DNA of 30,766 bases from a virus (Duplodnaviria > Heunggongvirae > Uroviricota > Caudoviricetes). Shown here in pieces: positions 1 through 22,743 of the stretch. A model generated the notes under the pieces. The model had not been told where the DNA came from and did not search any database. It saw only the letters and a list, made by a program, of their open reading frames with translations. The position numbers and the translations under genes are program-made. Each line of letters begins with the position of its first letter. The stretch's first letter is position 1. Location: the IMG/VR virus record IMGVR_UViG_2537561688_000008; one strand, given 5' to 3'.

Positions 1-555
1 GAGGAAGAAGTCGAGAGAGTGGTCGGCATTTACGCGCCGCATCTCGGCGCGCGTCATATTCATATCACCAGAACGACGGACTGGCGCATTGTGCCGAAAG
101 TTCCGGTCGTTGAGCCCTTGACTTTAAAAAGCGGCATCGCCGCGCCTCGGAGTCCTGTCAATAACTGTGGAAAGCTCACCGGTGGTGATACTTCGTTACC
201 GGCTCCCACACCTTCTGAGCACGCCGCAGCAGTGCTTAATCTGGTTGATGACGGTGTTATTGAATGGAATGAACCGGAGGTCGTGAGGGCGCTCAGGGGC
301 GCATTAAAATACGACCTGAGAACGCCAAACCGTCAGCAAAGAAACGGAAGCCCGTTAAAACCGCATGAAATTGCACCATCTGCCAGACTGACCAGGTCTG
401 AACGATTGCAAATCACCCGTATCCGCGTTGACCTTGCTCAGAACGGTATCAGGCCGCAGCGATGGGAGCTTGAGGCGCTGGCGCGTAGAGCGACCGTAAA
501 TTATGACGGGAAAAAATTCACGTATCCGGTCGCTGATGGTTGGGGGGATTCATAG
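1..555 (+). CDS. C-terminal part of a phage replication initiation protein (P2 gpA-like); 5' end lies outside the window
   Basis: Open frame runs from base 1 with no stop (the track's ORF 19-555 is its in-window portion). Sits immediately upstream of the cargo island and cos site, where gene A lies in an integrated P2 genome. Identity rests on synteny and recollection, not alignment. Confidence 0.4.
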   Translation, partial: EEEVERVVGIYAPHLGARHIHITRTTDWRIVPKVPVVEPLTLKSGIAAPRSPVNNCGKLTGGDTSLPAPTPSEHAAAVLNLVDDGVIEWNEPEVVRALRGALKYDLRTPNRQQRNGSPLKPHEIAPSARLTRSERLQITRIRVDLAQNGIRPQRWELEALARRATVNYDGKKFTYPVADGWGDS

Positions 556-804
556 GGCGCTTTGATTATTTCTGTGTTTGACATAGAATAGCCCCGTTAC
601 CGCTTGGGACATCTACTTTGCATTACTCTTGGTATTAGCTTTGTACAAAGGGTATAAAGGCTGCTATTGGCAACAATAGTGCTGGCATGGAGATTGCCTC
701 ATGTTAAAGCTAGTGAATGTACGCCAGTACAACCGCTACCGCTTTGGGCGTTGGGAGACGGTGCGTAAGCACCGTCGTTCTTACCCAAAACGATAATATG
801 CGGC

Positions 805-3021
805 CTAAGCGGTAACGTTCTCCTCTTCTAGTTCGTCCATCATTTTTAAATAATGCATTTCGTCACCAGTAGCTGAAAATATTGTTCTCAATTGTTTTAG
901 GTATTTATCTGGGTCTATGTCGCCCATATCAGTAATATTTACCGCATCAGAGTGAGAACCTCTGTTAATGTATCTGTAGAATGCTTTGAAATCACTGTTG
1001 CTATCGTCGCGTGCCAACTTTGTTAATTCATCTTGTAGAGCATCTGTTCTATGAACAAATGCAAAATAATATTCTAGTATGTTTCTCATAATATTAGGTA
1101 TTATGATTTTGTTTGCTTTGCCATCTTTTGCATCTTTTAATATTTGCCACAAAGATTGATATTCATTCTGTATGCTGTTTTTTTGTATTTCAGTAATTAT
1201 ACTAAAATCATTTTTCGTTACTCTACCTAGATAATAGTTTTTCTTAAATAGTTTGTCTTCTCTGCTTTTAGGAGATAGCTTAATAAGTTCATGAAAGAAA
1301 TAAAGATTGTGAGTAAGGATTAATACCTTCTTTGTTAATTCATTTTTTATAATGTGGTGATGAATAATTGATGCGATGTCGTAGACATAGTTTTGCGATA
1401 GACTAGATATTGGATCGTCAATAACAATAAAAATATCCCTGCTATCGGTATCATTTTTATCGGTTTTACCTTTACAGCACTCTAAAAAATAAAGAAACGT
1501 TATTAGTGTTTTTTCACCTTCGCTAAGAGATCTATAAACATTTTGGTTTTTTGTATGCCCTGGTCGAGATATAATGTACATATCTTTTCTTTCTGCATGT
1601 TTTTCAATACAAAAACCAGAGATCCCTAGATTTTTTAAATGGGTGTTTATTGAGTCTATCGTAGAATCAATGTTAGATATTTTATCTCGCAATGCTTTTA
1701 TTGTGAGATTATTTTCTTTTCCTTGTTGCTCAATATTATTTAATTCATCATGAACTTTCTTTTTGATATCAAAGAATTTTTCTTTGTGTTTGGATAAATT
1801 CTCTAAATCATCGCTGCAAAAAGCATGGAGAGCCCCCCAAACTTGTTTTCCGATTTTATTCTCATACTCTTTGAGTTTTTTAACCTTATCATTTATGTCT
1901 CTTATTTTTTTGTTAACAGCGTCTATGCTTTCCTGAACATGATTTTCTAGTTCTTTATCAATTTCTAATGTAACGCATGTTGATGGATTGTTGATCTTAT
2001 CAATAATGTTTATTAAATTTTTTTCTGCAATGTTTTGCAATATTTTAATATTGGAAATAATGATCTCTTTATCTTTCTCATTGATTAGTGCACATGATGA
2101 TATATTGTTTTGTATTTCGTTAAAATGATATATGGTATTTTTCTCATAAACTGACTTTATATCTGAGAGCTGTTTTACTTTCTTTGAATAACTTTCGTCA
2201 AATATTGATTTAAGGGCATTTAAAAATTCGCGACTAATAGTTTTTTCCTGACAAAACGGACATGTAGAACCGTCTAAATAATGTTCTTTACCTTTTTTTA
2301 CCCAGTCAAGATTATGAAGTTTATTAATGGTTTCTGATAAATAGCTATTGCTTGTATCTATTATAGGTGTTGCTAATGTATTTACATCATCAATTGATGG
2401 GGTATATGGGTGTAAAGGAGTTATTAATGCGGTTTCATTGTTTCTATTTTCTAATAGTATAGAGTATTCTTTTGCTATATCATTTAAATTAATAAAGGTG
2501 ATTGGTGAGGATGATTTTATCATCTCAAAAAAAGGTCTTTTATAGCCAACTTTACCTTTCATTAAGATTTTTAGTACAGAGTTTCTGATTGGTTCTGTTT
2601 TTTTCCAGATCGATTCGATGTATTCATTTTCTTTTTTTTCCATTTCTGCTTCTAATTTCAATAACACTCCTTTTTTTTGTCTATATTGCTCTGTAAGTTG
2701 CTGTTTAATTGCTTCTTTTTTAATTAATTGTTTTTCAATATCTGCATTTTCTTTACTTAATGTAAAAACACCTTTTTGTTCCTGTGCATTGTAGAAATTA
2801 TCTTCAATAAATTTAGTGTTGTAAACAAGAGGTTTGTAATTGTCAAGAAGGGTACATTCACACTCGTTATAATCTGTGTGTGTAGAGTCGTAGAAATAAT
2901 TTGAAATGGTAGATTTGCCACAACCATTTTGGCCGTATAGTATGTTTACTCTTTTTTCAAGATTCAGTATTGTGAAGGCGTCTTTCTTATAACTGGTAAC
3001 ATTTTTTAATCTAAGTTCCAT
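805..3021 (-). CDS. ABC-type ATPase with coiled-coil insert and C-terminal putative nuclease domain; RloC/PrrC-like candidate anti-phage protein (cargo island 1)
   Basis: Intact 738-aa ORF. Walker A GQNGCGKST near the N-terminus; ABC-signature-like LSEGEK, Walker B-like IFIVIDDP and H-loop-like LILTHN about 480 aa later; K/E-rich heptad-like stretches in between; CPFC motif mid-insert; C-terminal R-x3-E (RNILE) and R-x6-H (RYINRGSH). Visibly AT-rich compared with the flanking phage genes. GAGG lies 7 nt upstream of the ATG on the minus strand. Confidence 0.6.
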   Translation of the reverse strand: MELRLKNVTSYKKDAFTILNLEKRVNILYGQNGCGKSTISNYFYDSTHTDYNECECTLLDNYKPLVYNTKFIEDNFYNAQEQKGVFTLSKENADIEKQLIKKEAIKQQLTEQYRQKKGVLLKLEAEMEKKENEYIESIWKKTEPIRNSVLKILMKGKVGYKRPFFEMIKSSSPITFINLNDIAKEYSILLENRNNETALITPLHPYTPSIDDVNTLATPIIDTSNSYLSETINKLHNLDWVKKGKEHYLDGSTCPFCQEKTISREFLNALKSIFDESYSKKVKQLSDIKSVYEKNTIYHFNEIQNNISSCALINEKDKEIIISNIKILQNIAEKNLINIIDKINNPSTCVTLEIDKELENHVQESIDAVNKKIRDINDKVKKLKEYENKIGKQVWGALHAFCSDDLENLSKHKEKFFDIKKKVHDELNNIEQQGKENNLTIKALRDKISNIDSTIDSINTHLKNLGISGFCIEKHAERKDMYIISRPGHTKNQNVYRSLSEGEKTLITFLYFLECCKGKTDKNDTDSRDIFIVIDDPISSLSQNYVYDIASIIHHHIIKNELTKKVLILTHNLYFFHELIKLSPKSREDKLFKKNYYLGRVTKNDFSIITEIQKNSIQNEYQSLWQILKDAKDGKANKIIIPNIMRNILEYYFAFVHRTDALQDELTKLARDDSNSDFKAFYRYINRGSHSDAVNITDMGDIDPDKYLKQLRTIFSATGDEMHYLKMMDELEEENVTA

Positions 3022-3336
3022 TTTTATGCCTCATACGATAAAGCTTTTATTGTATGTAAAAAAGCAGCTTAATATAGCCACTTAGTGGTAAAGATCTACC
3101 TTAAGACTTTGATATGTGCAAGAGGCATATAACGTAAGTGTTCGTTGAGCCAAATGTGTTTACGCTATGACGAGTTGGTCGTTTTTTGACAATCCTGTAG
3201 GAGCTATAGATAGGCGTATATTAAGTGCGTGTTTTTGCATGTGTCAGATACTATTCTTTTTGTCAGTTTCGGTCAGTGCTGATGTGATTTCAGTTTCATC
3301 ATGCAACTGCATTAAAACCGCCCCATGAAGCGGGCG

Positions 3337-3355
3337 GGCGAGGCGGGGAAAGCAC
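3337..3355. other. cos: P2-type cos site (19-nt cohesive end)
   Basis: The sequence GGCGAGGCGGGGAAAGCAC, which I recall as the P2 cohesive end, sits about 170 bp upstream of the portal gene Q, the expected position in a P2 genome. Confidence 0.55.
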
Positions 3356-3524
3356 TGCGCGCTGGCGGTGGTGCTGATTTTATTTTTTCAGCGTCTGAGC
3401 GCGTCGTGATGGCGTTTAGATTGTTCGCCGGGGCGTTGGTGTGTCTGCGGGATGTTTTGTGCGGTGGTGAGCGTGTGAGGGCGTGATGACAGGGTGTAAA
3501 AAAGCCGCCCGCAGGCGGCGATGT

Positions 3525-4559
3525 TCAGCCGTTGTCAGGGTCCAGTGAGTAGTTTTTAAAGCGGATGACCTCCTGACCGAGCCAGCCGTTTATCTCGCGG
3601 ATCCTGTCCTGTAACGGGATAAGTTCATTGCGGACAAAGACCTTTGCCACTTTCTCAATATCACCCAGCGACCCGACGTTCTCCGGCTTGCCACCCATCA
3701 ACTGAAAGGGGATGCGGTGCGCGTCCAGCAGGTCAGCGGCGCTGGCTTTTTTGATATTAAAAAAATCGTCCTTCGTCGCCACTTCACTGAGGGGGATAAT
3801 TTTAATGCCGTCGGCTTTCCCCTGTGGGGCATAGAGAAACAGGTTTTTAAAGTTGTTGCGGCCTTTCGACTTGACCATGTTTTCGCGAAGCATTTCGATA
3901 TCGTTGCGGTCCTGCACGGCATCGGTGACGTACATGATGTATCCGGCATGTGCGCCGTTTTCGTAATACTTGCGGCGGAACAGCGTGGCCGACTCATTCA
4001 GCCAGGCAGAGTTAAGGGCGCTGAGATATTCCGGCAGACCGTACAGCTCCTGATTAATATCCGGCTCCAGCAGGTGAAACACGGAGCCGGGCGCGAAAGG
4101 TGTCGGCTCGTTGAAGGACGGCACCCACCAGTAAACATCCTCTTCCACGCCACGGCGGGTATATTTTGCCGGTGAGGTTTCCAGTCTGATGACCTTACCG
4201 GTGGTGCTGTATCGCTTTTCCAGAAACGCATTACCGAACACCAGAAAGTCCAGCACAAAGCGGCTGAAATTCTGCTGTGAAAGCCACGGATGCGGGATAA
4301 ATGTCGAGGCCAGAATATTGCGTTTAACGTAAATCGGTGAGCTGTGATGCACGGCAGCACGCAGGCTTTTTGCCAGACCGGTAAAGCTGACCGGTGGCTC
4401 ATACCATCTGCCGTTACTGATGCACTCGACGTAATCCAGAATGTCACGGCGGTCGAGTACCGGCACCGGCTCACCAAAGGTGAATGCCTCCATTTTCGGG
4501 GCGCTGGCGGTCATTGTTTTTGCCGCAGGTTGCGGTGTTTTCCCTTTTTTCTTGCTCAT
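3525..4559 (-). CDS. Q: portal protein (P2 gpQ-like)
   Basis: 344-aa ORF starting MSKKKGKTPQPAAKTMTAS, same length as P2 gpQ; divergent from O and adjacent to P as in P2. Confidence 0.9.
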   Translation of the reverse strand: MSKKKGKTPQPAAKTMTASAPKMEAFTFGEPVPVLDRRDILDYVECISNGRWYEPPVSFTGLAKSLRAAVHHSSPIYVKRNILASTFIPHPWLSQQNFSRFVLDFLVFGNAFLEKRYSTTGKVIRLETSPAKYTRRGVEEDVYWWVPSFNEPTPFAPGSVFHLLEPDINQELYGLPEYLSALNSAWLNESATLFRRKYYENGAHAGYIMYVTDAVQDRNDIEMLRENMVKSKGRNNFKNLFLYAPQGKADGIKIIPLSEVATKDDFFNIKKASAADLLDAHRIPFQLMGGKPENVGSLGDIEKVAKVFVRNELIPLQDRIREINGWLGQEVIRFKNYSLDPDNG

Positions 4560-17477: not shown

Positions 17478-18005
17478 ATGCAGCATTTGATAAATATAAC
17501 GGTGGGTAATCCAAAAACGGTTGAACAATATCAATTGACAAAGGACTTTGATGTTGTCTGGTTTTTTTCAGAAGATGGTAAGAACTGGTACGAAGAACAA
17601 AAGTATTTTGCTGATGACACGATAAAAATAGCGTACGACAAAGATAATATTATCCGCTATGTGGAAAAGGATGTGACAGCTATCAGACCAGATGGATTAA
17701 GTGTGGTTGAAGTGGCGGATATTACTGCTAACCGACGGGCGGACATTTCAGGGAACTGGATGTTTAAGGACGGCAAAGTGATTAAACGCATTTATACGGC
17801 AGATGAATTGCAGCAGCAGGCAGAAAACCGGAAAGCCAGACTTCTTGCAGATGCTGAATCCGTGATTTTGCCACTGGAGCGCGCTGTCAGGCTGAACATG
17901 GCAACAGATGAGGAGCGTAGCCGACTGGAAGCATGGGAACGCTACAGTGTTCTGGTCAGCCGTGTGGATCCTGCAAATCCTGAATGGCCGGAAATGCCGC
18001 AATAA
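17478..18005 (+). CDS. G: tail fiber assembly chaperone (P2 gpG-like)
   Basis: 175-aa ORF directly after H, as in P2. Confidence 0.85.
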
Positions 18006-18480
18006 GTTGTATAAGCTCTGGTGTGAGATTACATATCTATGGCACAGAGTAAAGCCTAATCTGACAGTCCGCTCTGTGCCAAGAGCGGACGTTACTACTA
18101 CTCGACCTAAAGTAAAGCAATTGTACTCATTAAATAGTGGTAATTGGGTCTGGTGCTTAATCGAACGAAATCTCATGTTAGGCGAAAAAAACGTCTGAAA
18201 AATCGATTAACACATACACCTGTGTACTATGGCCGTTATTCAATTTAAAAGGAACCATTTCCGATATGATTCACTGTCCATAATGTTTTGATTTATTAAA
18301 AAAGAGCCTTAGAGTGTGAAACCATTACGTTGAGTGGCGAACACCATTAATAAATTCTGCTTATACTTACAGCATATATTATGTTCACGTCATATAACCA
18401 TGGCAAATAAGATATTGCACATCAAGCATGATTATGATAGTGATTACAAAAATGAAGAATCTTAGATAAAGGATTAGTAA

Positions 18481-19416
18481 GTGGTTACATATAATTCAAT
18501 GTTGTTACCCCCCCCTAAATCTTGGGACGAATTTGAGGATATGTGCAAAAGTTCATTCCAACTGCGATGGTCCAATCCTAATCTGAACAGACATGGACGG
18601 TCAGGGCAGCGGCAGGATGGAGTTGATGTATATGGTGATGACTCTCTTGGGCGTTTCGTTGGAATTCAGTGTAAAAATACAGTATCAGGAATCAGTACGG
18701 CGACAATCGATGATGAATTACTCAAGGCTGAAAAATTTCGCCCAAAAATTACGGTTCTTTACATCGCTACGACAGCGCCCAGGGATGTTAGCATTCAGCG
18801 CTATGTAAGAACACTCAATGATGCCAGACAATTAAAAGGCCTGTTTCCTGTCGATGTGGTTTTCTGGGAGGATATTAGCTTTGATTTAAGCAAAGACCCA
18901 GCTGTACTCAAAATGTACTACCCGCAAATGTTCGAACGACACCAACCGACGAGGGAAGAATTTTTGCGCAAGAGAGATATCTCAAATTTGTCGACATTGT
19001 TGAATGTTATTGATTTTCATTCAACAATAGAACATTTGCAGTGGGGCGCAAAATACATTCATTCATTAATTATTGAAGAATACGATAATATTTTGAACAT
19101 TTTAAACTCACCTGTTTTTCAACTGAATGATACAGCTTTAAAGAATGTTACAATTGATTTTGCAACGGCCTGGCGTGATCTAATTATCTTGTTTAGAAAA
19201 GCTCCATATAATTATTCAGCACCAAATGATACTTTTAGTTTTATAAATCCCGGTGACCACTGTCGAAATCAGGAGGAAAGCGATTTATACGACGAAATCA
19301 CGCATAGCATGAGTAATCTCAAAGATAAAATTAGTACTTTTTGTGACTTTATAAATAATCACTACCATGAAATAAACTTAACCGAAACGAGCGCGCAAGC
19401 CAGGAAATATTATTAA
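18481..19416 (+). CDS. Hypothetical protein with N-terminal Mrr-like restriction endonuclease (PD-(D/E)xK, D...QxK) motif and a C-terminal domain of unknown function (cargo island 2)
   Basis: Intact 311-aa ORF with a GTG start at 18481 and AAAGGA 7 nt upstream (alternative ATG at 18499). N-terminal segment ...WDEFEDMCKSS...GQRQDGVDVYGDDSLGRFVGIQCKN... fits the Mrr catalytic pattern (acidic, DGxD, then hydrophobic-QCK). AT-rich; lies between G and FI. Confidence 0.7.
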   Translation: MVTYNSMLLPPPKSWDEFEDMCKSSFQLRWSNPNLNRHGRSGQRQDGVDVYGDDSLGRFVGIQCKNTVSGISTATIDDELLKAEKFRPKITVLYIATTAPRDVSIQRYVRTLNDARQLKGLFPVDVVFWEDISFDLSKDPAVLKMYYPQMFERHQPTREEFLRKRDISNLSTLLNVIDFHSTIEHLQWGAKYIHSLIIEEYDNILNILNSPVFQLNDTALKNVTIDFATAWRDLIILFRKAPYNYSAPNDTFSFINPGDHCRNQEESDLYDEITHSMSNLKDKISTFCDFINNHYHEINLTETSAQARKYY

Positions 19417-19693
19417 TACTTTTTTCTTAAGGGCTGCACTCATGGCCCTTAACACCGTTAGACTGTCATATTTTGCAATCGATACGCAGTTAGGTACTTT
19501 CTTGAAGTCCGTTCCTCGCTCATAGCTGACATTCAGCTCAATTAACTCGTCCACTTCGCTCCAACAGAAGGCGTAGCTAATCATACTGTGTATTAAAGAA
19601 AGGAGAAACGATCATGTTGAGTACAAAAAACACGAAAGACCATGATAAGGAAAATATGCGTAGAGTGACTTAGTTTATTGATTTAAATAATAT

Positions 19694-19870
19694 TTATGGG
19701 GGTAAGTGCTTTGAATAAAAAAACAAAAATTGAGAAGATTTAGCTAGTGCCAAAATAATTTGGACACCGCCCGTCATCAGACCCGCTACTACACTTATCA
19801 CCCCAGCCCAAAAAGTTTCAATGAAACAAGATACATATAGTAGTACTACATGGCGGAATAATTTACTCAT
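19694..19870 (-). CDS. Small hydrophobic (probable membrane) protein, 58 aa
   Basis: Minus-strand ATG at 19870 preceded by TAAGGAG with a 6-nt spacer. Product MSKLFRHVVLLYVSCFIETFWAGVISVVAGLMTGGVQIILALAKSSQFLFFYSKHLPP has a clear transmembrane-like segment. The ORF could extend upstream to 19999 (101 aa), but that start has no RBS. Confidence 0.45.
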   Translation of the reverse strand: MSKLFRHVVLLYVSCFIETFWAGVISVVAGLMTGGVQIILALAKSSQFLFFYSKHLPP

Positions 19871-20200
19871 AGGCTTCTCCTTACTGACGTAATCGTTAAG
19901 TAACACGTTGAGGTAACGGATAAATGCGACTATTGGGAGAGCTGTGATGAGAATTGTAGGCATAGGAATCGAACCTATGGATGCACTAGCTAAATTCACT
20001 CTTCACGAATTATACAGCATTGTAGTGAGTTTGTAAATACACGCCCCAAAAGTCAATCAGTCCGCTCCATGAATGTTGTGTCAGTACTACTAAAGTTAAA
20101 CATGCTAAAATAGGTTCCCAATATTCGTGGGTACAATCACTATCTGTGTAACTGGCGGAAGCGCTGGCATAACGACGATGCCTATTCGGGGGGCTTTAAT

Positions 20201-21067
20201 ATGGTCCGTTTTAACTTACTAGAAAATGCGTTGGATTCAGTGGAAACCGGGCTGGACTACTTTAACAAAGCGCTAGAAGGGCATGATCGACGTGACTACA
20301 AACAGTGCCTGCTTAACCTCTTTCAGGCCGCTGAGCTATTGTTGAAGGCCGTAGTTTCGCGCAATGGGTCTGGAGCGATTTTTAATCCAGCATCGCTTCA
20401 AGAAAAATGTGTGGATCCGGCGCATCCAACCGAGTCAGAATTACACCAGTGTAAATCTGTCAACGTCAACCAGCTTTGTAAGCTGTTAAAGACATATTAC
20501 CCAGCCGAATTTTCTGAATCTGCATTACAAATGATGAAAACGGTGGGTCAGTTGCGTAATAACCTTCAGCATTTTGCCCTTGAGGTTCGTCCGCAAGAAC
20601 TGGCAATGCAACTGAGTGAACTGTACCAACAAATTTTTCGTCCCGCATTCGTCATAATTCAGTCAGATGAGACCGAAAATTCATGGAACTCTGATTTACG
20701 TCAAGACATCATCGCTCTTGAGCAACAATTCCTTGATATAACTGTTAACCAGGAATACACCCTTGCACTTTGTCCCGTTTGTGAGAGTTTTTCACATTTT
20801 ATCCTTTACCAAAGTGAAAGCTTTCCGGCACGGACTCACTGTATCTGTTGTGGTTTCAGCCTGAATAATCTGCAAACTTGGGATTTTCAGGAATGTCCTG
20901 AATGTAGTGTCCCATCCGTAATTTATTTACCGGAACAAAGGGTCGGTGTCTGTCTCTGGTATAAATGTGAATACAGCAAGATGGATGGTTTTGTTCCTAT
21001 GGAGCCTTGTGAATGTGGTGCATTCCGGATGGAAGGTCATTGCAGTAACTGCGATCTTGAGGAATAG
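20201..21067 (+). CDS. Hypothetical protein with N-terminal HEPN-like helical domain (Rx4H motif) and C-terminal cysteine-rich (multi-CxxC) zinc-ribbon-like region (cargo island 2)
   Basis: Intact 288-aa ORF. Helical N-terminal part contains LRNNLQHF (R-x4-H). The C-terminal ~110 aa carry paired cysteines (CPVC, CICC, CPEC, C-x-C, CSNC). AT-rich. Confidence 0.65.
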   Translation: MVRFNLLENALDSVETGLDYFNKALEGHDRRDYKQCLLNLFQAAELLLKAVVSRNGSGAIFNPASLQEKCVDPAHPTESELHQCKSVNVNQLCKLLKTYYPAEFSESALQMMKTVGQLRNNLQHFALEVRPQELAMQLSELYQQIFRPAFVIIQSDETENSWNSDLRQDIIALEQQFLDITVNQEYTLALCPVCESFSHFILYQSESFPARTHCICCGFSLNNLQTWDFQECPECSVPSVIYLPEQRVGVCLWYKCEYSKMDGFVPMEPCECGAFRMEGHCSNCDLEE

Positions 21068-21430
21068 TAAAATCGTCCGATGAGAATGTACAGCAGCCTG
21101 GTCGATGATTTCTTGATGAATCGCTGAATTATCCGGTATTACTTGACAACTAAATCGCACATTTCTGTTTCTGGCAATTTGAAAGGTTTACTCTATGCCC
21201 CAGAATTCAGCACATACATAAAAACACCATTTCAGAACGCGTCTTGATCCAAAGAACGACTGTATGATAGATAGGCGTCGTCGTGAGGACAGGAATGATC
21301 TACCCCCCGTTATTCATACAGAATGCTGTTAGTAATGTCCGCAGATCGCTCAAAGCAGACTGTCAGATTTGATAGCGTTTGGGCTATGTAAGTAGCCAGT
21401 TGGAGAATGAGTGAGTGCAAATCAGGACTG

Positions 21431-21460
21431 GCGGGCGAATTGCCCGCATTTTCTTTATCT
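21431..21460 (+). terminator. Rho-independent terminator between cargo island 2 and the FI operon
   Basis: GCGGGC-gaatt-GCCCGC stem-loop followed by attttctttatct (T-rich). Confidence 0.5.
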
Positions 21461-21552
21461 GTTGTTTCATCCACTGACCAGCCAGGTCAAATAGCGTCTC
21501 ATGCACTGCCCAACAGAAAATAGTTGCACCCATTAACCACGGAGTTAAACGG

Positions 21553-22743
21553 ATGAGTGACTATCATCACGGCGTGCAGGTGCTGGAGATTAACGACGGC
21601 ACCCGCGTCATTTCCACTGTATCCACTGCCATTGTCGGCATGGTCTGCACGGCCAGCGATGCGGATGCGGAAACCTTCCCCCTCAATAAACCTGTGCTGA
21701 TTACCAATGTGCAGAGCGCAATTGCAAAGGCCGGTAAAAAAGGCACGCTGGCGGCATCGTTGCAGGCCATCGCTGACCAGTCAAAACCGGTCACCGTTGT
21801 CGTGCGCGTGGAAGACGGCACCGGCGACGACGAAGAAACGAAACTTGCGCAGACCGTTTCCAATATCATCGGCACCACCGACGAAAACGGTCAGTACACC
21901 GGACTGAAAGCCCTGCTGGCGGCGGAGTCAGTAACCGGTGTTAAACCGCGTATTCTCGGCGTGCCGGGACTGGACACCAAAGAGGTGGCTGTTGCACTGG
22001 CATCAGTCTGTCAGAAGCTGCGCGCTTTCGGGTATATCAGCGCATGGGGCTGTAAAACCATTTCCGAGGTGAAAGCCTACCGCCAGAATTTCAGCCAGCG
22101 TGAGCTGATGGTCATCTGGCCGGATTTCCTCGCATGGGATACGGTCAGCAGCACCACCGCCACCGCGTATGCCACCGCCCGTGCGCTGGGGCTGCGTGCT
22201 AAAATCGACCAGGAGCAGGGCTGGCATAAAACGTTGTCCAACGTCGGGGTAAATGGTGTTACCGGCATCAGCGCATCTGTATTCTGGGATTTGCAGGAGT
22301 TCGGCACCGATGCTGACCTGCTTAACGAGTCAGGCGTCACTACGCTGATTCGCCGCGACGGTTTCCGCTTCTGGGGTAACCGTACCTGCTCTGATGACCC
22401 GCTGTTCCTCTTTGAAAACTATACCCGCACCGCGCAGGTGCTGGCCGACACGATGGCTGAGGCGCACATGTGGGCGGTGGACAAGCCCATCACCGCAACG
22501 CTGATTCGCGACATCGTTGACGGCATCAATGCCAAATTCGTGAGCTGAAAACAAACGGCTATATCGTGGATGCGACCTGCTGGTTCAGCGAAGAATCCAA
22601 CGATGCGGAAACCCTCAAGGCCGGAAAACTGTATATCGACTACGACTATACACCGGTGCCTCCTCTTGAAAACCTGACCCTGCGCCAGCGTATTACCGAT
22701 AAATACCTGGCAAATCTGGTCACTTCGGTTAACAGCAATTAAG
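21553..22743 (+). pseudogene. FI: tail sheath protein (P2 gpFI-like) with C-terminal frameshift
   Basis: 331-aa ORF (21553-22548) is followed without a gap by a second frame encoding ...ELKTNGYIVDATCWFSEESNDAETLKAGKLYIDYDYTPVPP... up to 22743; the combined span matches a ~396-aa sheath protein. Confidence 0.7.

Follow-up and report, generated by a model that had tools for sequence, protein, structure and literature searches.

What is encoded in the interval between P2 gene A and cos, the old/tin position of P2, is the question raised by this locus, which lies in a Caudoviricetes virus record (IMGVR_UViG_2537561688_000008) whose whole stretch of 30,766 nucleotides we refer to as the window. 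A first-pass annotation had placed there a single AT-rich gene for an ABC ATPase resembling the RloC/PrrC-type anticodon nucleases, with an OLD-family or a Lamassu-type ATPase as alternatives. Starting from what is directly observed, namely the domain architecture, the motif conservation, the full-length homology to an rloC-labelled clade, the near-identity to a protein of Escherichia coli APEC O1 and the position in the hotspot, we consider that the gene is very probably an RloC orthologue, whose C-terminal HEPN-type RNase would be controlled by a Rad50-like ABC ATPase interrupted by a coiled-coil insert with a CXXC, and that it makes up the sole cargo of the gpA–cos defence hotspot in a P2-like prophage.

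Setting of the cargo gene

The stretch from 805 to 3021 constitutes the sole plausible gene between P2 gene A and cos. According to the ORF list it is an intact reading frame on the minus strand, encoding 738 aa, with an ATG start and its stop codon at 805–807, and direct reading of the upstream sequence revealed a Shine-Dalgarno sequence, GAGG, separated from the start codon by 7 nt (Table 1). Its composition (29.5% GC, GC3 25%) departs from the 53% GC of the remainder of the window, and in the island flanks no second credible ORF appeared, only ORFs of 26–53 aa, one of them overlapping cos and none with supporting evidence. The flanks likewise contained no partner or antitoxin ORF for the cargo gene, no tRNA genes were detected in the window, and promoter-like sites were not enriched (14 found versus 11.6 expected in shuffled sequence). 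The single AT-rich gene announced by the first-pass annotation is thus confirmed, and so is its location at the old/tin hotspot of P2, given that it occupies the gpA–gpQ slot between the end of gene A (555) and the portal gene (3525–4559). The 19-nt cohesive-end sequence bordering the slot on the right, which we take to be the P2 cos sequence, was found at 3337–3355 as an exact match with a chance expectation of 0. Cloned sequences of P4 hotspots contain this 19-mer, too (Rousset, Table S2A). The encoded protein is identical to RefSeq WP_000423309.1, labelled ‘AAA family ATPase’.

Table 1. Features of the cargo gene, its protein and the borders of its slot, with positions in the 30,766-nt window
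Feature	Position	Strand	Basis
P2 gene A (replication endonuclease) reading frame, 3' end; left hotspot border	19–555	+	RefSeq annotation of identical locus; ORF list
CDS of the probable rloC orthologue, 738 aa	805–3021	−	ORF list; Pfam AAA_13; PADLOC PDC-S06; identical to WP_000423309.1
Predicted C-terminal anticodon-nuclease (HEPN-type) domain, residues 585–738	808–1269	−	
R683-YINRGS-H690, HEPN-like Rx6H with the His of the putative triad, Ser before His	952–975	−	Conservation; aligns with R727...S733-H734 of rloC-labelled clade
R646-N-I-L-E650, Arg and Glu of putative catalytic triad	1072–1086	−	Conservation; aligns with R689/E693 of rloC-labelled clade
ATPase head C-lobe, residues 447–584	1270–1683	−	Motif positions; invariant residues
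H-loop LTHN, residues 569–572	1306–1317	−	T570, H571 invariant
Walker B FIVIDD, residues 531–536	1414–1431	−	D535, D536 invariant
Signature LSEGE, residues 499–503	1513–1527	−	E501, G502, E503 invariant
Helical coiled-coil/zinc-hook insert (predicted), residues 89–446	1684–2757	−	AlphaFold2 helices; heptad signal
CPFC, candidate zinc-hook CXXC, residues 254–257	2251–2262	−	Conservation; alignment with CLFC of rloC-labelled clade
ATPase head N-lobe, residues 1–88	2758–3021	−	Motif positions; Foldseek matches to Rad50 and SMC heads
Walker A GQNGCGKS, residues 30–37	2911–2934	−	G30, G35, K36 invariant
GAGG Shine-Dalgarno sequence	3029–3032	−	Upstream sequence
P2-type cos, 19-nt cohesive-end sequence GGCGAGGCGGGGAAAGCAC; right hotspot border	3337–3355	+	Exact match
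Portal gene Q, directly past cos	3525–4559	−	RefSeq annotation; ORF list

Domain architecture and motif conservation

Conservation was assessed in an alignment of 45 sequences, the most distant at 18% identity, throughout which K36, C254, C257, E501, E503, D535, D536, H571 and R646 are invariant. Walker A, CPFC, signature, Walker B and H-loop appeared at the places, and in the order, in which the first-pass annotation had described them, although Walker A and the signature lie 461 aa apart instead of the ~480 aa given there. Pfam AAA_13 (PF13166) covers residues 17–716 (E 6.7e-111), PADLOC PDC-S06 (E 4.8e-254) and PHROG 2801 each matched over the full length, and the PADLOC PrrC HMM matched residues 490–730 of the full-length protein (E 1e-12). 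PDC-S06 is designated a candidate defence gene, AAA_13 an ‘AAA domain’ and PHROG 2801 ‘unknown function’, names that denote bioinformatic bins and not functional definitions.

The two lobes of the ATPase head are separated by an insert of ~360 aa, predicted to be helical, in which AlphaFold2 places helices at residues 90–141, 276–308, 315–344, 356–401 and 403–446, the long ones at 90–141 and 403–446 bordering the head. The coiled-coil-like stretches that had been noticed in this region were recovered in a crude heptad test, with signals exceeding the 99.9th percentile of shuffles at 351–395 and 403–468 and the 99th at 85–115. By the same two methods, the ~230 residues around CPFC form short helices without strong heptad signal and therefore make no case for a simple Rad50-like apical hook, while CPFC itself falls in a predicted loop (residues 249–263). 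Both cysteines are present in 45/45 sequences (P255 in 43/45 and F256 in 42/45), a CxxC occurs at a comparable position in 123/123 retrieved relatives, and hhalign placed the CPFC column on the CLFC of the rloC-labelled clade. On sequence grounds CPFC is a candidate zinc-hook CXXC, its zinc binding and apical position both being putative. The AlphaFold2 model reached a pLDDT of 83.9 with a low pTM of 0.48, and its domain arrangement is uncertain because of the latter.

In the C-terminal domain, the R-x3-E and R-x4-6-H candidates pointed out earlier were located at residues 646–650 and 683–690 (R-x6-H). The putative triad R646-x3-E650-x39-S689-H690 fits the published R-X3-E-X36–52-H pattern; R646 is found in 45/45 sequences, E650 in 42/45 (Asp in the other three), S689 and H690 in 42/45 each, and R683 in 34/45, the equivalents of R683 and H690 (R727 and H734) being invariant in the rloC-labelled clade. 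R683-x6-H690 within an all-helical domain also corresponds to the Rx4–6H motif that characterizes HEPN proteins. When the C-domain was searched in isolation, no significant match appeared in the fold database (Foldseek), nor did the PrrC HMM match it at E ≤ 1.

These results bear on the possibility that the protein is a DNA-directed ATPase and not an RNase, be it a nuclease of the OLD/TOPRIM type, an SMC sensor like LmuB of Lamassu, or a repair factor akin to Rad50/SbcC. The head is structurally like those of Rad50, SMC and LmuB, the top Foldseek matches of the model being Rad50 (7zr1, 9q9i) and SMC heads; weak matches to LmuB, AriA and SMC_N models were obtained, and in P2 the same slot is held by Old. 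However, the Pfam scan detected no TOPRIM or other DNase domain, the all-alpha C-domain carries the conserved R/E/SH triad, LmuB matched with an E of 7e-10 against 5e-254 for PDC-S06, and the island contains no LmuA, SbcD or Mre11 partner ORF. A DNA-directed function appears, in our judgement, extremely improbable. Rad50 and SbcC, the best structural neighbours of the model, share with the cargo protein the split ABC head, the long helical insert and the CXXC, but their coiled coils are much longer, they act with an Mre11 or SbcD nuclease partner and they have no C-terminal RNase domain. Searches of the PDB returned nothing meaningful with the single sequence and, with a profile, only P-loop/coiled-coil matches to Rad50, SMC and AriA, with no PrrC or RloC structure among them.

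As for the two families proposed initially as alternatives, neither found support. Where OLD proteins have a C-terminal TOPRIM, no Toprim family emerged from the Pfam scan at E ≤ 1 and the C-domain is all-alpha; and in place of the LmuB plus LmuA pair of Lamassu there is a single-gene island without a credible second ORF, in which LmuB remains at the E-value given above.

Relationship to RloC and PrrC

The closest published counterpart appears in the paper that defined the RloC family, where Davidov and Kaufmann (2008, Table S1, entry 51; PMC2610378) list as an RloC orthologue the 738-aa E. coli APEC O1 protein YP_852004, flanked by ‘Phage replication initiation, Capsid’. From strain, length and flanking genes we infer that YP_852004 and WP_000423308.1 are the same protein. 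The APEC O1 genome contains a single copy, with 99.5% nucleotide identity to the cargo gene, in the gpA–portal slot of a P2-like prophage, between the replication endonuclease and portal genes. The two proteins have the same length, 733 of their 738 residues (99.3%) and all motifs are identical, and the five substitutions (K101E, I152T, R264H, I320N and D367G) all fall inside the coiled-coil insert. Klaiman 2012 uses the name ‘E. coli APECO1 RloC’ and describes rloC as often being the single cargo in integrated phages, and it is plausible that APECO1_4465 of the HEPN paper is this same gene, given that a single copy was detected in APEC O1, in a prophage. WP_000423309 itself is listed in the P2 hotspot by Rousset et al. 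2022 (Table S5A), whose Table S5B gives the AAA_13 class the annotation ‘RloC-like’ and counts it 420 times. With a near-identical copy tabulated as RloC in 2008 and the protein itself listed in the hotspot in 2022, neither the classification of the cargo protein nor its place in the P2 hotspot is new; both have already been published.

Judged by sequence, all the features by which the founding paper recognizes RloC are present in the cargo protein: ABC-ATPase motifs with key residues invariant in 45 sequences, a helical coiled-coil insert with heptad signal in the stalk and a conserved CXXC, and a C-terminal Arg-X3-Glu-X36–52-His triad with the frequent Ser before His. By way of the APEC O1 copy in the same slot, it is also represented among the orthologues tabulated in that paper. 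The initial RloC/PrrC-type reading is supported by these features together with the near-identical APEC O1 entry. Alignment with the ~790-aa rloC-labelled clade by hhalign (probability 100%, E 3e-54, 706 columns) paired CPFC with CLFC, R646/E650 with R689/E693 and SH690 with SH734, and relatives at ~30% identity carry the label ‘wobble nucleotide-excising tRNase’. The cargo protein falls in a separate clade of ~720–745 aa, and its pairwise BLASTP similarity to the rloC-labelled clade is significant in the signature/Walker B block only (P0178, 36% identity there). No Geobacillus or A. baylyi was found among the 80 loci of a genome contig scan for relatives, a protein database profile search returned no Geobacillus entry, and a search started from P0121, a distant relative, extended to the rloC-labelled clade with no Geobacillus among the 120 matches listed.

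The biochemically characterized prototype of the family is the RloC of Geobacillus kaustophilus (GkaRloC, 804 aa), with which the cargo protein was compared through published features and not by direct alignment. Both share the order Walker A, CXXC-bearing coiled coil, signature, Walker B, H-loop and R-X3-E-Xn-(S)H, and the cargo protein has full-length profile homology to the size class of GkaRloC. It is 66 aa shorter, its CXXC lies at 254–257 while that of GkaRloC is at C291, its triad spacing is X39 as opposed to X40, and it belongs to the separate clade mentioned above. This distance leaves room for a variant in which an ABC-ATPase-controlled HEPN RNase would have another target or chemistry than GkaRloC, such as a single anticodon nick, another tRNA site, or mRNA or rRNA, wobble excision then not being applicable to the clade. 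The restriction of significant BLASTP similarity to the ATPase block, three clade-specific invariant residues outside the published triad (Y621, N643 and H723) and the diversity of targets among HEPN RNases speak in its favour, but the triad and its spacing are retained, the alignment with the rloC clade holds column for column, and the APEC O1 protein was counted as an RloC orthologue by the discoverers of RloC. We consider such a departure unlikely.

Escherichia coli PrrC, the tRNA-Lys anticodon nuclease of the prr locus, resembles the cargo protein in its ABC-ATPase N-domain and in a C-terminal nuclease domain with Arg, Glu and His that belongs to the HEPN superfamily. PrrC differs in its size of ~400 aa (372 positions in the PADLOC model) without a coiled-coil/zinc-hook insert, in its residence in a type Ic R-M locus that silences it, and in nicking 5' of the wobble base without excision, whereas the cargo gene has no R-M linkage. 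An identification with PrrC itself was discarded, the locus being neither hsd-embedded nor of the compact form, with 738 aa and an insert of ~360 aa.

The homology to PrrC nevertheless raises the question of whether the nuclease could be regulated in the same manner, with a host type I R-M complex silencing it in trans, a phage anti-restriction protein releasing it, and no internal DNA-end switch. In the 2008 table the entry for APEC O1 carries the remark ‘encodes type I EcoK like’, a possible trans interaction is discussed (PMC2610378), and an R-M partner in trans could not be excluded by Klaiman 2012. Yet no hsd genes occur within 6 kb of the cargo gene, which is flanked by the P2 genes for the replication endonuclease and the portal; the cargo protein has a conserved coiled-coil/zinc-hook insert for which PrrC has no counterpart; relatives of the cargo protein stand alone in unrelated mobile contexts; and the RloC of A. 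baylyi was activated by break inducers in an R-M-deficient host. Silencing in trans seems to us quite unlikely.

Possible mode of action and interest of the locus

For the probable RloC orthologue, a mechanism can be proposed by analogy with the RloC proteins of G. kaustophilus and Acinetobacter baylyi (PMC2610378, PMC3458546, PMC3874168). In the resting lysogen the nuclease would be silenced internally, probably via the zinc hook. DNA ends, which might be double-strand breaks, free phage DNA termini or the replication and degradation intermediates of a superinfection, would be bound by the ATPase head and trigger ATP hydrolysis, releasing the nuclease. This would then cut target tRNAs 3' and subsequently 5' of the wobble base, removing nucleotide 34, a lesion that should resist repair by phage kinase and ligase. 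Translation would halt and the infected cell would yield no phage, an abortive infection that could spare the lysogen population and the resident prophage. Of these steps, the excision of the wobble nucleotide by successive 3' and 5' cuts has been shown biochemically for GkaRloC only, while activation of the nuclease by the DNA-dependent ATPase and de-repression by zinc-hook mutation have been shown for both GkaRloC and AbaRloC. In the papers on RloC and the P2 hotspot that were consulted we found no anti-phage assay for any RloC, one survey stating ‘not tested’, and the systems that Rousset cloned, as tabulated there, do not include it.

Besides their common genomic position, P2 Old and the probable RloC orthologue are both ABC-ATPase sensors fused to a nuclease, and for Old an abortive tRNase activity in response to DNA defects has been reported (2026 preprint). 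Nevertheless, the effector of Old is a TOPRIM and not a HEPN domain, Old has no coiled coil or zinc hook, and no specific sequence relationship beyond the ABC fold was detectable with Pfam and PADLOC models. One might speculate that the ~720–745-aa clade, largely enterobacterial and prophage-borne, is a functionally distinct RloC subfamily which in P2-like phages serves as a swap-in equivalent of Old, a proposal that we hold to be doubtful. If it were true, Old and RloC would both couple a tRNase to an ABC ATPase that senses aberrant DNA ends, the gpA–cos slot would repeatedly recruit DNA-damage-sensing, tRNA-cleaving abortive modules, and the tRNA targets and phage triggers could be particular to the clade. 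The members of this clade have a shorter stalk, a distal region around the CXXC that is unlike a coiled coil, and the additional invariant tyrosine, asparagine and histidine of the C-domain.

The discovery value of the locus is small, given that published work already covers the protein, the family to which it belongs and its occurrence in the P2 hotspot. What interest it retains is practical: according to Klaiman 2012, testing the proposed biological role of RloC requires a host that expresses RloC naturally, together with cognate phages that have enzymes for tRNA repair, and an intact allele in an E. coli P2-like prophage offers a highly tractable system for such a test. With this allele, RloC and Old could also be compared directly in one and the same slot, Old too now being reported as a tRNase.

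A single-gene cargo island in the gpA-cos slot

The locus is a single-gene, AT-rich cargo island between gene A and cos, since the step in base composition, from ~560 to ~3300, is occupied by one ORF with a GC content of 29.5% (GC3 25%) against 53% in the remainder of the window, and the flanking intergenic stretches contain only ORFs of 26-53 aa, all without support, one of them overlapping cos. Gene surroundings were taken from the RefSeq annotation of the identical E. coli locus, and the 19-nt cohesive-end sequence of P2 appeared in one exact occurrence at 3337-3355, where chance predicts none. The first-pass annotation had described a lone AT-rich gene at the P2 tin/old position, and both points held: gene A ends on one side, cos and then portal gene Q lie on the other, and this is the slot that old and tin occupy in P2 itself.

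Features of the gene, its protein and the neighbouring phage genes
Feature	Position	Strand	Details
P2-type replication endonuclease (gene A)	end at window 555		RefSeq annotation
rloC-like ORF	805-3021	minus	ATG start, 738 codons
Same ORF in RefSeq			'AAA family ATPase', WP_000423309.1
GAGG	7 nt upstream of ORF start	minus	sequence reading
Portal gene Q	3525-4559		then terminase gene; RefSeq annotation
Walker A	residues 30-37		738-aa protein
CPFC	residues 254-257		738-aa protein
LSEGE signature	residues 499-503		738-aa protein
Walker B	residues 531-536		738-aa protein
LTHN	residues 569-572		738-aa protein
R-x3-E	residues 646-650		738-aa protein
R-x6-H	residues 683-690		738-aa protein
Second-island ORF	18481-19416		311 aa
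Second-island ORF	20201-21067		288 aa; PADLOC candidates PDC-S64 (E 4e-21), HEC-08; DUF3644

A second AT-rich cargo island (18000-21500, GC 36-43%) occupies what is the Z/fun position in P2, with the tail-fibre assembly gene (17478-18005) on one side and the tail sheath gene (21553-22548) on the other. Two ORFs are found in it, the 311-aa one having no Pfam or PADLOC match. E. coli strain 120899 has the same sequence as the window across the hotspot region (window 600-3500). Upstream of its prophage early region (L001:1-1133), the annotation gives the integrase as a truncated pseudogene abutting an IS21-like IS100 transposase gene, so that excision of this P2-like prophage may not be possible.

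RloC architecture of the 738-aa protein

RloC was defined by ABC-ATPase motifs like those of PrrC, a CXXC zinc hook within a coiled-coil insert, and a C-terminal Arg-X3-Glu-X36-52-His triad, often with Ser before His (Davidov and Kaufmann 2008, PMC2610378). All three features are found in the protein, with CPFC as the candidate hook and a triad that reads R646-x3-E650-x39-S689-H690, and every motif of the RloC layout initially proposed, including the H-loop, was located where it had been placed. In an alignment of 45 sequences, down to 18% identity, K36, C254, C257, E501, E503, D535, D536, H571 and R646 are invariant, and E650, S689 and H690 are each kept in 42; a CxxC occurs at a comparable position in all 123 relatives retrieved. 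Y621, N643 and H723 (window 808-1269, residues 585-738), outside the published triad, are likewise invariant in 45/45; at the position aligned with H723, Gln seems to stand in the rloC-labelled clade. In P0080, a Lachnospiraceae relative labelled 'wobble nucleotide-excising tRNase', Pro replaces the triad His ('NRESPSKG'), hence some family members may be catalytically dead.

Residues 17-716 matched Pfam AAA_13 (PF13166) on profile positions 11-713 of 713 (E 6.7e-111), the PADLOC candidate family PDC-S06 matched end to end (E 4.8e-254), and the PADLOC PrrC model covered residues 490-730 (E 1e-12). PHROG 2801, of unknown function, matched over the full length, an NCBIfam scan gave no specific family, and 'wobble nucleotide-excising tRNase' is the label that sources give to relatives with 28-32% identity. 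Pairwise BLASTP against P0178, a relative of ~795 aa labelled 'putative rloC protein', was significant over the signature/Walker B block only, whereas profile-profile comparison with its clade was much stronger (probability 100%, E 3e-54, 706 columns), placing CPFC on CLFC, R646/E650 on R689/E693 and S689-H690 on S733-H734. Because this match spans 706 columns with hook and triad aligned, the protein belongs to a shorter (~720-745 aa) RloC-family clade and is homologous from end to end to the clade that has the size of the characterised Geobacillus kaustophilus prototype, GkaRloC. Domain content argued strongly against the OLD/TOPRIM reading and, together with the absence of a partner gene, the Lamassu one; PrrC membership was dismissed on R-M linkage and architecture.

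An AlphaFold2 model built from the 45-sequence alignment had a mean pLDDT of 83.9 but a pTM of 0.48. It places the strands and helices of the ABC head at residues 1-88 and 447-584, with long helices (90-141 and 403-446) exiting and re-entering the head and CPFC about halfway along the insert sequence, in a loop (249-263). In the PDB, Foldseek gave as best matches Rad50 in Mre11-Rad50 complexes, then SMC/condensin heads, with Lamassu LmuB lower; sequence searches of the PDB detected no PrrC or RloC structure. In a crude heptad test, 351-395 and 403-468 scored above the 99.9th percentile of shuffled sequences and 85-115 above the 99th, in agreement with the coiled-coil-like stretches noted earlier, and no such excess appeared in the ~230 residues around CPFC. 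The model and this heptad signal thus support a coiled-coil stalk, while CPFC is only a candidate for a simple Rad50-like apical hook.

Proposed mode of action

GkaRloC first cuts on the 3' side of the wobble base and then on its 5' side, excising nucleotide 34; both activity and toxicity are lost when any one of the triad residues is mutated, and zinc-hook mutations render the nuclease hyperactive and ATPase-independent. That our protein differs from it in cleavage specificity seems unlikely. In A. baylyi, inducers of double-strand breaks switch on the native RloC even without R-M, and tRNA-Glu and tRNA-Gln are then cut transiently. Beyond the observed architecture and conservation, we infer from homology the most likely trigger, substrate and defence phenotype: the protein would be silent in the lysogen, DNA ends arising in superinfection or genotoxic stress would switch it on, and the nuclease would shut down translation by inflicting damage that phage tRNA repair should be unable to undo, leading to abortive infection. 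The functional analogy with the native occupant of the slot is close, since P2 Old is reported to be an ABC-ATPase-coupled tRNase responding to DNA defects (2026 preprint).

Relatives were found across Pseudomonadota, Bacteroidota, Bacillota, Campylobacterota and candidate phyla. The Serratia one is a solitary gene with housekeeping genes on either side, that of Pseudomonas lies on the margin of an element that carries an integrase and that of Neptuniibacter adjoins a transposase. No linked R-M system occurs in these three contexts, which fit a module that is self-contained and moves horizontally. That a host type I system regulates the protein in trans seems unlikely.

Earlier records and spread in E. 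coli

[quoted passage not shown] Klaiman et al. (2012) aligned 'E. coli APECO1 RloC' with PrrC, and Anantharaman et al. (2013) classed the PrrC/RloC nuclease as HEPN and set apart an ABC-HEPN group carried by prophages, with APECO1_4465, plausibly the same gene, as its type example. Rousset et al. (2022) listed WP_000423309 itself as an 'AAA_13' arrangement in the gpA-gpQ hotspot, in strains matching the window at 100%; their curated table annotates this class as 'RloC-like' and assigns it 420 of 18,150 occurrences, and the class is absent from their cloned-systems table and from the validated P2 systems. P4-like satellites, too, have AAA_13 proteins in their cos-adjacent hotspot, e.g. 'AAA_13 + AAA_13' (Rousset 2022 Table S1), so RloC-like genes may be common to helper-phage and satellite hotspots.

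Copies at least 99% identical were present in 44 of 5426 complete E. coli genomes, and a further 72 carried alleles at 60-80% nucleotide identity, all chromosomal. APEC O1, one of the 44, has a single copy (925,932-928,148; L082:4001-6217), flanked by the genes for the replication endonuclease and the portal protein, with 12 nucleotide differences from the window, 7 of them synonymous. The five substitutions (K101E, I152T, R264H, I320N, D367G) all fall in the coiled-coil insert, and none in the ATPase head or nuclease domain. In TW10722, UID2404240036, APEC E18055 and APEC 16-1068, the annotation splits an otherwise near-identical copy into two 'AAA family ATPase' CDSs, suggestive of frameshifts. 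In the type strain ATCC 11775 the match begins only at query base 312 (86% of the gene) and the record has a second matching place, so this copy looks truncated or interrupted. Together, the split copies and this partial one suggest that a potentially toxic gene has been inactivated repeatedly.
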